DNA from: Candidatus Omnitrophota bacterium | GTDB lineage: Bacteria; Omnitrophota; Gorgyraeia; Tantalellales; Tantalellaceae | Reading direction: 5' to 3' | Assembly: GCA_014728045.1 (NCBI GenBank) | Contig: WJMH01000015.1 | Coordinates: 22,479-86,478, forward strand | DNA length: 64,000 nt | Translations under genes and position numbers: made by a program | Shown: piece after piece, positions 54,813 to 60,099 of the stretch | Layout of the letters: each line of letters starts with the position of its first letter | How positions within the stretch are numbered: the stretch's first letter is position 1 | The notes under the pieces: generated by a model | Seen by the model: only the letters and a program-made list of their open reading frames with translations | Database searches by the model: none | Told to the model about the DNA's origin: nothing

Positions 54813-55154
54813 TCAATCGCCCCTGATCATAACAAGCATCATCTTGAGCCTGCTCGCTGCTTTTACTGAATGTGGCCTGTTGGCGGGCATGATTATGATC
54901 TGGCCTTTTTTAAGATCATGTTTTTCTGAAGATATGACCACTTCTCCGGTTCCTTCTATGACTCCTACCAGCGCGTCGAACGGAGCGGTATGTTCGCTCA
55001 GCCCCTCACCCGCTTCAAAAGCGAACACGCTGACCGTCCCTTCGGGCTTGTCTATAAGCGTACGGCTGACCACAGCTCCGGGCTGGTAGTCAATGACCTC
55101 CGCCAGATCGAGCGCTCTGGAGCTGAGAGGTTCTTTGTTATTATCTGATATCAT
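54813..55154 (-). CDS. cupin-domain protein
   Basis: 113 aa small-barrel cupin pattern (G..xxH..xxE..G..P...H). Confidence 0.6.
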   Translation of the reverse strand: MISDNNKEPLSSRALDLAEVIDYQPGAVVSRTLIDKPEGTVSVFAFEAGEGLSEHTAPFDALVGVIEGTGEVVISSEKHDLKKGQIIIMPANRPHSVKAASRLKMMLVMIRGD

Positions 55155-55169
55155 TATTCCACCTCCTGG

Positions 55170-55595
55170 TCATACCTCGCCGGTAAAGTCCGGGCCTTTT
55201 TTAAGAAGCGACCTGATCGTGATACTTTTCATCTCACGGGTAATGATCCTTTCCAGCTCATCCAGCTTCTTTTTGAGGAAACAAGTCTCTATGAACTGGC
55301 ATGTCTTGCCCTTGAAAAGGTGCTCGCTTATACTGAAGGGTCCCTGGAAGACCCTCATGACCGAGTAAACGCTGATCTTTTCAGGCGCAAGCGCCAGGGT
55401 AAACCCCCCGCCGCGCCCTTTTGAAGAATCAAGCAAACCCTCTTTATTGAGCTTCTGGAGTATCTTCCTCAGAAACGGCCTCTGCATGTCCAGCTTCCCC
55501 GTGAGGTCCCTTACCGAAAGCGTCTTCTCCCTCGCCCCGGCGATACAGCAGAGCGCGCGGATAGCATAATCTGTGTCTCTTGTTATCAGTTTCAT
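55170..55595 (-). CDS. Rrf2-family transcriptional regulator
   Basis: 141 aa. N-terminal wHTH (TDYAIRALCCIAG..) and GRGGGFTLA typical of Rrf2/IscR/NsrR. Only one Cys in the C-terminal half, so probably not a Fe-S-binding member. Confidence 0.8.
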   Translation of the reverse strand: MKLITRDTDYAIRALCCIAGAREKTLSVRDLTGKLDMQRPFLRKILQKLNKEGLLDSSKGRGGGFTLALAPEKISVYSVMRVFQGPFSISEHLFKGKTCQFIETCFLKKKLDELERIITREMKSITIRSLLKKGPDFTGEV

Positions 55596-56059: not shown

Positions 56060-56692
56060 CTACTTGAATATTTCCCCGGTCTCCTCTGACCAGAACAATA
56101 GATCAAGTTCTTCCATTGGTATATCTATTTTTTGGGAGAACTTCCTCATCTTCTCCTCGATCCGGAGGTATCTGGCCCTTGATAGATTGGATGGGGCTTC
56201 TTCAACAACCCCGTACCTGATGAGGTTCCTGATTATGTGCACGTCCAGTATCGCAAGCCCCCTGCCGAATCCTATGTTCCTCAGGAAATGGCTCGCTTCC
56301 TTATATCCGAGACCCTTCACGTTCATCACGAGCCAGTCACGGGTCTTGAGTATATCGCCCGGGTCTATTTTATCCTTGATCCTGATAGAACCGTCGGTGG
56401 TGAAGAGCTTTCTAGCTCCGACTATGTACCTGGCCTTGTTATTCGGAAAGCGCACCGCCTCAAGGCCTTTTCTTATCTGTCGGACGGTGCCGGTAAAAAG
56501 GGTACCGCTCCTCTCAAGGCGCGAGACCGCCTTATCGCAGTATACCGCCCGTGACTGCGGGGTGCATATACAGAAACACAGCTCACTGAAGATCTTCTTT
56601 TCAGTTCCGTTCCATGTTTTCTTGAATTGCCTGAGCCGCCTTTTTATAAGGTCCTTTTTTCGCGCGTGGCCGGCGATGAGTTCTTTCATCAT
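56060..56692 (-). CDS. N-glycosylase/DNA lyase, Ogg2-type 8-oxoguanine DNA glycosylase
   Basis: 210 aa. HhH-GPD region VKGLGYKEASHFLRNIGF...DVH, with a length and pattern like archaeal-type Ogg. Confidence 0.65.
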   Translation of the reverse strand: MMKELIAGHARKKDLIKRRLRQFKKTWNGTEKKIFSELCFCICTPQSRAVYCDKAVSRLERSGTLFTGTVRQIRKGLEAVRFPNNKARYIVGARKLFTTDGSIRIKDKIDPGDILKTRDWLVMNVKGLGYKEASHFLRNIGFGRGLAILDVHIIRNLIRYGVVEEAPSNLSRARYLRIEEKMRKFSQKIDIPMEELDLLFWSEETGEIFK

Positions 56693-56877
56693 GAGACCAG
56701 TTCTATGAGTTTTTTGGCGATCTGGATGTGGCGTTTCTCGTCATCCCTTATTTCGGAAAGGGTCTGTTTAATCTTTTCATCGTCCACCTGTTCTATGTAA
56801 TGGTCATAAAAACTCTTGGCCCTTTCTTCATAGCCCAGGATCTCCTCGAATTCCTTGCGCAGGTGATCAGTATTCAT
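56689..56877 (-). CDS. small helical protein with ferritin-like E..H signature (distal half)
   Basis: 62 aa from ATG 56877 (MNTDHLRKEFEEILGYEERAKSFYDHYIEQVDDEKIKQTLSEIRDDEKRHIQIAKKLIELVS). Overlaps the preceding small ORF by 11 nt in another frame. Could be the C-terminal half of a frameshifted ~140-aa ferritin-like gene. Confidence 0.3.
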   Translation of the reverse strand: MNTDHLRKEFEEILGYEERAKSFYDHYIEQVDDEKIKQTLSEIRDDEKRHIQIAKKLIELVS

Positions 56878-57109
56878 CACGCGAATCCTTTTCAATTTTG
56901 AGTAACAGCTCCTCGACCATTTCCCTGTGGCGGGAAGAGTCACGATGAAGTTGAGAGATAAGGCTATCTATCTTTCTGCGTTTCTCATCTTCGATGCCTT
57001 CGGTCTCACCGACGAGCACCTTGGTGAAATTAGTGAAGACCGTCACCATCCCTTCCTCTACGTAAATAAGCTCATGTAAGCCCGCAAGAAGCCTCTGTTT
57101 TGATATCAT
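56867..57109 (-). CDS. small helical protein with ferritin-like E..H signature (proximal half)
   Basis: 80 aa (..LHRDSSRHREMVEELL..). See the partner ORF 56689-56877. Confidence 0.3.
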   Translation of the reverse strand: MISKQRLLAGLHELIYVEEGMVTVFTNFTKVLVGETEGIEDEKRRKIDSLISQLHRDSSRHREMVEELLLKIEKDSRDEY

Positions 57110-58494: not shown

Positions 58495-58914
58495 CTAAGC
58501 CTTCCACAACATATGCACGTTGCAGAACTCCCTTACTTCAACTATATCACCCTTTGAAACGCAGCAGAAATGTGCCTGTGGGTTGTCGCCGGGCTTAAGC
58601 TCATATCTCATGACCTTGTCTTGCGTCAAGACCTCGATGAACTTGATATAATGGTCCTCTTCCATGGGGTGCGGCTCGCTGCCGATTTTGACCTCTATAC
58701 AGACAGACCCTTCCCCGCAGGAGGCGCAGGATACGTCCTCCTTACCGGTCTCACTGACCACGGGAACGTGTTTTTCCTGCCCTTTATCCTCTGTCTTGGC
58801 CTCAAGCTTGACCATAGGCTTCTCGCAGCAGACAAGTGACGGTGCCCCCTCTTTGGCTATCTCGACGACATGCCCGCATACCTCACAATAATATAAGTCC
58901 CGTAACCCTGTCAT
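58495..58914 (-). CDS. dfx: desulfoferrodoxin (2Fe superoxide reductase)
   Basis: 139 aa. N-terminal desulforedoxin-like CEVCGHVVE..LVCCEKPM, then a KHVPV..H..H..C..H SOR centre II. RBS AAAGGAGG. Confidence 0.85.
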   Translation of the reverse strand: MTGLRDLYYCEVCGHVVEIAKEGAPSLVCCEKPMVKLEAKTEDKGQEKHVPVVSETGKEDVSCASCGEGSVCIEVKIGSEPHPMEEDHYIKFIEVLTQDKVMRYELKPGDNPQAHFCCVSKGDIVEVREFCNVHMLWKA

Positions 58915-58991
58915 AGCGACCTCCTTTGCCCTGCGGGGACCTGCGGCCCGGCAGGCTAAATGCGTCTATTCTTCTTAATTGATTGGGGTAA

Positions 58992-59129
58992 TTAGACCGG
59001 TTCGAACTGGTCTTTTCCGACACCGCATTCGGGACATACCCAGTCATCGGGAAGATCGTCAAAAGCAACATTATCGTTCTCCGCCGGATCATAGATATAT
59101 CCGCAAACAGTACATCTGTATTTCTGCAT
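58992..59129 (-). CDS. rd: rubredoxin (45 aa; below the ORF-track length threshold)
   Basis: Hand translation of the minus strand: [45 protein letters not shown] with the two CxxCG knuckles. ATG 59129 is preceded by AGGAG with 7-nt spacing (an alternative start is MAMQ.. at 59135). Confidence 0.8.
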
Positions 59130-59217
59130 GGCCATGCTCCTTTCTGATAATTGGATCAACTCGCTATCAGTTCACTCTATTTTATGTCAGTTGGGATTAT
59201 CTTTCTACTGTTATTTA

Positions 59218-59240
59218 ACAAATAATATTGATAATTCCCG
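59218..59240 (-). promoter_or_regulatory. Fur/PerR-like AT-rich box upstream of the rubredoxin-dfx-rbr operon
   Basis: AACAAATAATATTGATAATTCCC resembles GATAATGATAATCATTATC-type Fur/PerR operators. It lies about 90-110 nt upstream of the rubredoxin ATG. Confidence 0.3.
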
Positions 59241-59266
59241 TTCTTGAGACACTCCTAATTCGAACC

Positions 59267-59301
59267 AGCCCCGCACCGGCAACATACCCCGATGCGGGGC
59301 T
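59267..59301. other. stable GC-rich hairpin in the 410-bp intergenic region
   Basis: AGCCCCGCA (17-nt loop) TGCGGGGCT, a 9-bp perfect stem. It is followed on the plus strand by TATTCTCTT, and on the minus strand lies between a small Cys-rich ORF and the Fur-like box. Confidence 0.4.
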
Positions 59302-59333
59302 ATTCTCTTATCGCGTCCAAAGGCAGTTTAACG

Positions 59334-59411
59334 TCATGCCCGGGACCTGGTACAGCATCCCTCTTTGCAATGCGTCACCGGACGCAACATAAATTTCAAG
59401 GTTACATTCAT
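59334..59411 (-). CDS. putative 25-aa Cys-rich small ORF (possible leader peptide)
   Basis: AAAAAAGGAGGAGCTT-ATG; peptide MNVTLKFMLRPVTHCKEGCCTRSRA*. Strong SD with ideal spacing, followed 33 nt later by the hairpin. No homology assessable. Confidence 0.25.
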   Translation of the reverse strand: MNVTLKFMLRPVTHCKEGCCTRSRA

Positions 59412-59553
59412 AAGCTCCTCCTTTTTTAAGCCATTATTCACTCCACACTTTAATGATACCATGATAGTATCATTTGTCAAGGGTGATAATGTACCTTTTT
59501 TATACCCGGATACCTAACTTCCGCGAAAAGGAATAACCGCGGGAAAAAACTTT

Positions 59554-60099
59554 TTACAAAAGGTCTTTTATACGAGATTCGAAAAATTCCCTGTCTCTAT
59601 ACCCTACGACCTTTTCGACGATCCTGCCTTGTCGATCGATTATGAAAGTGGTCGGTATCCCCCTTATCCCGCCGTATGCGCTGACCGTGGCCTGATCGCC
59701 CATAACAAGGGGATAACTTACGTCGGCTTCACGGGCGAACTCCCTGACAGGTGCCGCCCCTGCCCTGTCCAGGCTCACGCCCACTATCACAAGGCCCTCT
59801 GACTTGTAGCGCCTGTAAAGTGCCTCGAAATGAGGGACTTCCATCCTGCAGGGCGGGCACCATGTCGCCCAGAAATCCAGTATGACCACCTTCCCCTCTG
59901 TGTTCGACAGGCTGAAGTCATTGCCACTTATATCTTTAAGTGTAAAGTCCGGGGCCGTCTGACCGTCACTGACCGCGGATGAACTCTGACAGGAGAGAAC
60001 GCCCCCGGCCAGCAGTATAAGCATTACCAAAGGCAGGATCACAAATCTATTTTTCACCGCTTCCTCCTCCATTTTATTTAGCAAAACCGTAAAATTCAT
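59554..60099 (-). CDS. TlpA/ResA-family thiol-disulfide oxidoreductase lipoprotein
   Basis: 181 aa. Thioredoxin fold WATWCPPC and lipobox VLSC. Start uncertain: ATG 60099 overlaps ccdA by 26 nt; the alternative is ATG 60072. Confidence 0.75.
   Translation of the reverse strand: MNFTVLLNKMEEEAVKNRFVILPLVMLILLAGGVLSCQSSSAVSDGQTAPDFTLKDISGNDFSLSNTEGKVVILDFWATWCPPCRMEVPHFEALYRRYKSEGLVIVGVSLDRAGAAPVREFAREADVSYPLVMGDQATVSAYGGIRGIPTTFIIDRQGRIVEKVVGYRDREFFESRIKDLL

Follow-up and report, generated by a model that had tools for sequence, protein, structure and literature searches.

In other anaerobes, the genes for rubredoxin (rd), desulfoferrodoxin (dfx), and rubrerythrin (rbr) are classical members of the PerR regulon (PMC545781, PMC8546684), and in Desulfovibrio and clostridia these detoxification genes serve the oxygen response under PerR/Fur control. 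In systems governed by Rrf2-family regulators, such as NsrR, IscR, RsrR, and CymR, the Rrf2 gene lies within or beside the regulated cluster, a palindromic AT-rich operator of about 19-25 bp overlaps the promoter, and the operon is autoregulated; the NsrR-type regulons for nitric oxide (NO) and O2 include hcp and genes for flavodiiron proteins, iron-sulfur (Fe-S) proteins, and peroxide/superoxide detoxification. Short open reading frames (ORFs) with an RNA-level role are known from two further settings. In leader-peptide attenuators and arrest-peptide upstream ORFs (trpL, hisL, ermCL, BmrB, TnaC, and SpeFL), a short, well-translated ORF in the 5′ leader is followed by hairpins. In dual-function small RNAs (sRNAs) and microproteins (SgrS/SgrT, SR1/SR1P, RNAIII/delta-haemolysin, and peTrpL), a small unit, transcribed from its own promoter and bounded by its own terminator, codes for a peptide of ≤30 aa and is also constrained as RNA; the leader peptide peTrpL is able to act in trans (PMC7298713). 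Here, we compare with these systems a 424-bp ORF-free gap on the minus strand of a 64,000-nucleotide stretch of DNA (hereafter the window) from a Candidatus Omnitrophota bacterium, located between the stop codon of a tlpA-like thioredoxin gene (59554) and the start codon of the rubredoxin gene (59129).

The gap is the longest ORF-free stretch of the window, in which all other gaps are ≤274 nt, so that the original prediction, made from this DNA alone, was right to single it out as exceptionally long. Every sequence element described in that prediction was also found at its coordinates on the minus strand. We consider that the gap heads and controls a gene cluster for oxidative/nitrosative stress, in which a Rrf2-family protein would act on a palindromic operator and a conserved micro-ORF would encode a microprotein acting in trans. 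To this explanation as a whole, we assign a confidence of 0.55.

A conserved micro-ORF under peptide-level and RNA-level constraint

The micro-ORF encodes 25 aa, MNVTLKFMLRPVTHCKEGCCTRSRA (59334-59411, minus strand), and its ATG is preceded at a distance of 5 nt by the Shine-Dalgarno (SD) sequence AAGGAGG (59417-59423, minus strand). Both the strong SD and the 25-aa ORF (59411-59334) are present exactly as predicted. Codons 7-19 (59393-59355) form the core of the peptide. In a family search, this core was back-translated as CGNCCNGTNNNNCAYTGYAARGARGGNTGY and metagenome contigs were scanned with the resulting pattern, which revealed conservation of the small ORF in relatives at no fewer than 120 (≥120) metagenomic loci. 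Among the matches listed, an SD-like site together with an in-frame start codon is found in 119 of 120 unique family members, and the ORFs are 18-32 aa long with modes at 20 and 27. The core of the family is [YF][MR][LI]RPVxHCKEGC. Subfamily 1, to which the window belongs, has the form M[DN][IV]T[IV][KR][YF]MLRPV[AST]HCKEGC[SC]xxS[WR]A(RR), and subfamily 2 has the form MWTxRFRIRPVSHCKEGCxx. The family is present in at least two phyla, represented by Omnitrophota and by Geobacter/Trichlorobacter. We regard such conservation in relatives as a stronger argument against chance than any statistics internal to the window.

Since the back-translated pattern fixed the amino acids of the core, coding was tested on codons outside the pattern. 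Codons 2-9 show an entropy with period 3 and a ratio of nonsynonymous to synonymous polymorphism (pN/pS) of 0.26 in an ungapped alignment of 56 sequences. Codons also switch between codon families, with CTN and TTR for Leu, CGN and AGR for Arg, and AGT for one Ser. In four sequences that were reached through Dfx homologues and not selected by the pattern, the differences within the core lie almost all at third codon positions. Because of the SD and start codon in nearly all members, the low pN/pS outside the pattern, and the codon-family switches, we take the micro-ORF to be coding, and its translation is predicted accordingly from sequence.

In databases, only 31 of 5.8 billion proteins carry the motif, all of them unnamed tiny ORFs. 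When 1.84 billion representatives were searched exhaustively with a profile, 64 matches were obtained; each is either an unnamed tiny ORF or a spurious extension, and in none is the motif fused to a larger domain. This search broadens the motif to [YWF][MF][LI]R[PATDE][VI][AST][HR]C[KSD][ED]GC. The peptide matched zero families in Pfam-A and NCBIfam at E values up to 10, nothing meaningful in the PDB, and no plasmid sequence in a tblastn search, and nothing relevant was found in the literature searched by motif string or topic. A second or divergent copy of the ORF is present neither in the window nor in the other loci. The string CKEGC occurs in animal metallothioneins, which we regard as a coincidence and not as evidence.

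The last third of the ORF is constrained in another way. In codons 20-27, period 3 is lost, third positions do not vary, and pN/pS is 1.0. An RNA-level block, GUCCYGGGCAHGACGNUAAACUGCCC (59321-59346, minus strand), occupies the 3′ end of the micro-ORF and is retained irrespective of the place of the stop codon: it may be preceded by TAG, contain TGA, be followed by TAA, or occur where the stop codon is missing. The block folds into a hairpin in which 59341-59337 pair with 59325-59321 over 5 bp, enclosing a loop of 11 nt with the stop codon. Across the family, this helix is 88% paired, shows GC-to-AU double changes at two pairs, and has G-U pairs that are valid on the gene strand only. Its covariation score was reached by none of 500 shuffles, and helices slid along the alignment as controls were ~32-38% paired. 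The hairpin is thermodynamically weak in the window (-4.9 kcal/mol). Consensus folding of the region around the ORF gave no larger RNA structure, none of the Rfam 15 covariance models matches at gathering score anywhere in the window, and at 58900-59700 (E up to 10) and the Trichlorobacter ammonificans locus, Rfam gave only sub-threshold noise. Separately, an insertion of ~50 nt resembling a miniature inverted-repeat transposable element is tolerated inside the loop of the small hairpin in locus L108 (~2110-2170) and at the equivalent positions in L193 and L178. It has the terminal inverted repeats CCCCGTTAGAG...CTCTAACGGGG and a duplicated TAAAC on both flanks.

The micro-ORF with its embedded hairpin is a new family inside a known class of small genes. 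As in the dual-function sRNAs and microproteins, the unit is small, can have its own promoter and terminator, and combines a peptide of ≤30 aa with constraint at the RNA level. It differs from them in that there is no sequence relationship and no base-pairing target has been identified: the loop complement, GTTTAACGTC, has no target elsewhere in the window, where the search was made. An RNA of dual function, acting both as such and through its peptide, may be counted within the explanation we prefer.

A promoter-operator unit linked to Rrf2 genes

Upstream of the micro-ORF lies a promoter, P1, with the -35 element TTGACA (59475-59480, minus strand; invariant in 48 related loci) and the extended -10 element TGgTATCAT (59453-59461, minus strand). 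P1 matches the sigma-70 consensus at 11 of 12 positions, with a 16-nt spacer and TG ahead of the -10 element, and the spacing predicts a transcription start near 59446. The spacer is filled by a 23-bp palindrome, AATGATAC-N7-GTATCATT (59452-59474), which also overlaps the -10 element and which we propose as an Rrf2 operator. What the original prediction noted only briefly as a 7-bp inverted repeat is present but larger, since the palindrome can be read as 11-1-11 with one mismatch or as an exact 8-7-8. It occurs once in the 64-kb window at 0 mismatches. Across 48 unique metagenomic instances, the 35-bp promoter-operator unit, tttttttCTTGACAAATGATACtAnTATGGTATCATTa, hardly varies, and the flanks and synonymous sites diverge. 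The operator core TGATAC-N7-GTATCA is found exactly in 42 loci, with one copy each and always upstream of a subfamily-1 micro-ORF; in the other 162 loci compared, which are unrelated or belong to subfamily 2, it was found zero times.

Some loci depart from this arrangement. In L178, the promoter-operator unit is present twice, and in L156, a degenerate operator lies downstream of the micro-ORF, immediately ahead of Rrf2. Divergent subfamily-1 micro-ORFs without the operator (L091, L100, L181 (1735); L102, L129, L204) precede other genes. Micro-ORFs of the MARNxIRW... type precede secreted proteins with the metal-binding YHS/TRASH domain, and those of the MKRY... type precede genes of the PNP_UDP_1 phosphorylase family.

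The closest homologues of the window desulfoferrodoxin (70-74% identical) led to four loci, L081 (Ca. Tantalella remota), L082, L083, and L084, with the same rd ... dfx-rbr-rbr-like-grx ... ogg cluster and a gap of 170-370 nt ahead of rd. In these gaps, an SD precedes a small ORF whose core is MLRPV[TSA]HCKEGC, and a GC-rich stem-loop that starts with (A/G)GCCCC follows. In L082 and L083, the promoter and palindrome immediately precede these elements, and in L081 they lie 1.6 kb upstream, before three extra genes. The tlpA side of the gap was less informative: an exact protein look-up with tlpA gave no match, and a TlpA-based contig scan gave 80 loci with ≤58% identity that share ccdA-tlpA, none of which has rd downstream.

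The operator is associated with genes for Rrf2 proteins. Among loci with adequate flanks, 27 have both the operator and an Rrf2 gene, 10 have neither, 5 have only the operator, and 2 have only Rrf2 (Fisher p = 6e-5); the loci with the operator only are rd-linked, with Rrf2 farther off or outside the fragment. In subfamily 1, the gene next to the micro-ORF encodes Rrf2 at 34 of 54 loci, usually at a distance of 15-100 nt. The genes that follow the micro-ORF and Rrf2 encode the hybrid-cluster protein (Hcp), ferredoxins/Fer4, Dfx, rubrerythrin, AhpC/redoxin, Grx, flavodiiron proteins, and NAD-binding oxidoreductases, and this gene set is an O2/NO detoxification regulon. In the clade of the window, the detoxification genes are placed between the micro-ORF and Rrf2.

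The Rrf2 gene of the window (55170-55595, minus strand; Pfam Rrf2 PF02082, E = 4.7e-29) lies near the 3′ end of the stress cluster on the same strand. Its product is 41-56% identical to the Rrf2 proteins compared, seven of which are encoded directly after a micro-ORF, and shares the helix-turn-helix region with the micro-ORF-linked proteins. Among solved structures, a BadM/Rrf2 regulator and NsrR are closest to this protein. The directly linked Rrf2 proteins have the ligand pattern C-x7-C-x5-C, and those of the rd-cluster type (window, L081, and L090) have His-x7-C-x5-C, which suggests a different ligation of the cluster. Around residues 90-105, the two types read NEC...C-x5-C and SEH...C-x5-C, respectively.

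We infer that an Rrf2 protein binds the operator. Like the described Rrf2 systems, the locus has an Rrf2 gene inside the cluster, a 23-bp AT-rich palindrome that overlaps the promoter, and an operon that appears autoregulated; most of the family members share the C-x-C-x5-C ligand pattern, and the gene content resembles that of the NsrR-type regulons. It differs from them in that the regulon is centred on rd-dfx-rbr, which is elsewhere usually under PerR, a conserved micro-ORF opens the operon, and the window protein has His for the first Cys. To our knowledge, the palindrome AATGATAC-N7-GTATCATT is not the published NsrR or IscR consensus. The operator-regulator part appears to be a new member of the Rrf2 systems, and its regulon is one usually assigned to PerR in other organisms.

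Stem-loop, free-standing copies, and rival explanations

Downstream of the micro-ORF, a GC-rich stem-loop of 13 bp, AGCCCCGCAUCGG...CCGGUGCGGGGCU (59267-59301, minus strand), has a folding energy of -31.9 kcal/mol for the gene strand (z = -5.2; none of 200 shuffles is as stable) and of only -23.1 kcal/mol for the plus strand, so that the stable GC hairpin of the original prediction is borne out by folding. The stem is not followed by a U-tract; the next sequence is GGUUCGAAUU. Analogous stems with differing inner bases and retained pairing are found in L081, L082, L083, and L086, compared by eye, as the sequences are too few for a formal covariation test. A U-tract follows the stem in L081 and L086, which makes it an intrinsic terminator, and is missing in the window, L082, and L083. 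Since the stems of L081 and L086 have the U-tract and the subfamily-2 units all end in a terminator, the window stem-loop is best read as a degenerate, probably leaky terminator or insulator of the micro-ORF unit.

The subfamily-2 loci come from Desulfuromonadales of the Geobacter/Trichlorobacter type, as their neighbouring HlyD genes are 74-91% identical to those of named genomes. Subfamily-2 units have their own promoter and terminator, and every unit ends in the hairpin followed by a strong terminator. No Rrf2, rd, dfx, or rbr gene is found within 6 kb of the subfamily-2 ORFs. The next gene is convergent in 13 of 43 loci, and in six of these it is confirmed by Pfam (rhodanese, OEP, pyridoxal phosphate (PLP) decarboxylase, SRAP, DUF3187, and AhpC/TSA) and adjoins the terminator of the unit. 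Since such free-standing copies have convergent neighbours and their own promoters and terminators, the product seems to act in trans, and these Geobacter-type copies favour a trans-acting microprotein over a leader peptide. In cultured T. ammonificans, an uncalled subfamily-2 micro-ORF, MWTQRFRIRPVSHCKEGCRIRPVG (L205 2841-2915; OW150024.1, ~2,981,194-2,981,268), comes with the promoter TTGACT-17-TATTAT and with a strong terminator, which lies 22 nt ahead of a HlyD-family gene. A third hairpin/promoter-like block with the core ATCTGCTATGAT lies after the terminator of the HlyD-linked unit, ~90-140 nt past the subfamily-2 ORF, in L092, L134, L145, L146, L150, L182, L201, and others; it may be an RNA element or a promoter of the form TTGtcg-17-TGcTATGAT.

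Several observations weigh against the explanation that we prefer. With no U-tract after the window stem-loop, termination is only presumed, and the candidate second promoter ahead of rd (P2, see below) is only a weak 9/12 match. Several family members have Arg for His, which weakens the idea of a strict His-Cys-Cys metal site, and in the window Rrf2, His occupies the position of the first Cys ligand. L082 and L083 carry the operator with no Rrf2 gene within the 7 kb shown, and the operator binder there could be encoded elsewhere or be another protein. Finally, the gene after the micro-ORF is co-directional in 48 of 49 subfamily-1 loci, and the HlyD gene of T. ammonificans, starting so close to the terminator, has no visible promoter; both observations fit a leader that acts in cis.

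In such a cis-acting regulatory leader, a ribosome on the nascent peptide together with the hairpin or stem-loop would set the expression of Rrf2, rd-dfx-rbr, or HlyD, and we regard this reading as possible but doubtful. Besides the two observations just given, the locus shares with the described attenuators and arrest ORFs the strong SD, the tiny ORF, and the one or two hairpins that follow, with a classic intrinsic terminator in subfamily 2 and thus in many relatives. The stop codon lies within or adjoins the conserved hairpin, and 8 of 41 Rrf2 genes have no SD of their own and start 15-55 nt past the ORF. Strong C-proximal conservation is typical of the arrest peptides TnaC, SecM, and SpeFL, and the conserved segment of the micro-ORF product likewise lies close to the stop. 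However, folding constrained by a ribosome footprint at the stop codon or Cys19 revealed no antiterminator: in the window, the stem-loop stays intact as the minimum-free-energy structure with no competing pairing, and the terminators stay intact in about three dozen subfamily-2 loci in which the test is informative. Runs of regulatory codons are also absent, and the tail between core and stop varies from 0 to >10 codons. The translated leader ORF of an attenuator is present, but its U-tract terminator is missing from the window while present in L081, L086, and subfamily 2, and a co-directional gene does not always follow in subfamily 2. At the six loci with confirmed convergent genes, there is nothing to regulate in cis, and the same peptide is conserved ahead of unrelated genes in two phyla. 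The micro-ORF is thus probably not a classical attenuation leader, and the attenuation suggested for the window by the original prediction finds no support, as the window has no U-tract after the stem, no competing pairing, and no run of regulatory codons.

Two further readings are less probable still. If the conserved element, on one strand or the other, were a riboswitch or sRNA that does not code for protein and in which the ORF is incidental, this would account for the nucleotide-level conservation and covarying hairpin of the 3′ third, for the fold of the whole leader, which is more stable than shuffled sequence (z = -3.4), and for the sRNA-gene-like subfamily-2 units (promoter, ~170 nt, terminator), and a scan flagged a terminator-like site on the plus strand. 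We consider it improbable, since the 5′ two-thirds show period 3, purifying selection, and codon-family switches, the SD and start codon are kept almost throughout the matches listed, and Rfam and consensus folding gave neither a family above noise nor a larger structure. The strand is also against the plus-strand small RNA that had been considered earlier: it is the minus strand that carries the promoter, the SD, the ORF, and the G-U pairs in the two hairpins and on which the fold is stronger, and the T-rich tail of that candidate is not kept in relatives. A Fur-family repressor, PerR-like as in Desulfovibrio and clostridia, acting on an AT-rich box at 59217-59236 would suit the classical PerR membership of rd, dfx, and rbr, and the box is indeed AT-rich, with hexamers like ATTATCA/GATAAT in three copies in the gap. 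But the Fur/PerR-like box of the original prediction, which exists as an AT-rich stretch at 59236-59217, does not match the 7-1-7 consensus of PerR (TTATAATNATTATAA) or Fur (TGATAATNATTATCA) within 3 mismatches and is not kept as a motif in L081-L083, L086, L090, or L163. A tblastn search with B. subtilis PerR and E. coli Fur gave no significant Fur-family gene in the window and 124 related loci (best E = 0.008 over 32 residues). The conserved element is instead the palindrome linked to Rrf2. While the detoxification genes and the oxygen response are the same as under PerR/Fur control, the operator here is tied to another regulator family, and the Fur/PerR reading is largely refuted and very improbable.

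A trans-acting product is thus the reading of the micro-ORF that we retain: the peptide is most likely a small Cys-x3-Cys microprotein related to redox or metals. A more specific role of the RPVxHCKEGC product, as a redox/NO/metal co-sensor or modulator of Fe-S Rrf2 regulators, or as a nascent-peptide sensor that works through the stop-codon hairpin, is speculative and unlikely. For the gap itself, the proposal of a metal/redox-responsive control region stands in part: it is a genuine control region, very probably redox-responsive, without the Fur/PerR and attenuation components.

The stress gene cluster and its proposed regulation

On the minus strand, ccdA (60802-60074) and the tlpA-like gene (60099-59554) lie 5′ of the gap. 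Ahead of rd, the candidate promoter P2, TAGAAA-17-TAAAAT (59179-59207, minus strand), has counterparts in L086 (TAGAAA-17-TACAAT) and L081 (TTGACA-18-TATAAT). The AT-rich block (59217-59236, minus strand) lies directly upstream of the P2 -35 element, where it may serve as an UP-like element, and L086 has a comparable AT-rich run ahead of its TAGAAA hexamer. The rubredoxin gene (ATG at 59129, gene 59129-58992, with SD 58992-59143, minus strand; Pfam Rubredoxin, E = 1.1e-15) is preceded by the SD AAAGGAG (59143-59137, minus strand) and followed by dfx (58914-58495) and rbr (58473-57895), both on the minus strand. The order then continues with genes for a rubrerythrin-like protein and glutaredoxin, two small ORFs, Ogg, a 161-aa protein, and Rrf2, and a cupin-like ORF (54813-55154) lies 3′ of Rrf2.

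Desulfoferrodoxin from the window (58495-58914) shares 100% identity with an Omnitrophica protein at NCBI. The window protein and its closest relatives have 139-141 aa, compared with 125-126 aa in most homologues, and the extra segment, KEDVSCASCGEGSVC, adds three cysteines between both domains. The two overlapping small ORFs (56689-57109; 80 and 84 aa) have no Pfam match, and their position is kept in L081-L084, where ORFs of 80 aa and 58-67 aa lie between grx/TrxR and ogg. Farther along the window, three consecutive very large ORFs of 1862, 3473, and 1303 aa on the minus strand (28294-48589) are the "giant genes" mentioned in the original prediction.

In the regulation that we propose for this cluster, the holo form of its Rrf2 protein would bind the palindrome and occlude P1 from RNA polymerase. 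Damage to the iron-sulfur cluster of Rrf2 by oxygen or NO, through oxidation or nitrosylation, would then derepress P1. The P1 transcript would open with the strongly translated 25-codon gene, from which the microprotein is made, and the last third of this ORF would also serve as the conserved small RNA hairpin that has the stop codon within its loop. The stem-loop without a U-tract most likely ends or dampens part of the transcription from P1, and partial read-through into rd-dfx-rbr and on to Rrf2 would close a negative feedback loop. The weaker P2, with the AT-rich block upstream, may give rd-dfx-rbr a basal expression. The peptide itself would act in trans and, in Omnitrophota, would have been recruited as the first cistron of an Rrf2 operon.

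For the uncultured Omnitrophota, the locus offers a concrete promoter, operator, and candidate repressor for the genes of O2/NO defence; the role that PerR has elsewhere is probably filled here by an Rrf2 protein. The micro-ORF is a strongly conserved gene of 18-32 codons that standard annotation has missed, and its occurrence in cultured Trichlorobacter makes its function directly testable. Selection at the peptide level together with selection at the RNA level makes the family a good case for dual-function small genes. If the product were a co-sensor or modulator of Rrf2 regulators or a nascent-peptide sensor, it would be a new component of stress signalling in anaerobes that is encoded by a dual coding/RNA element.

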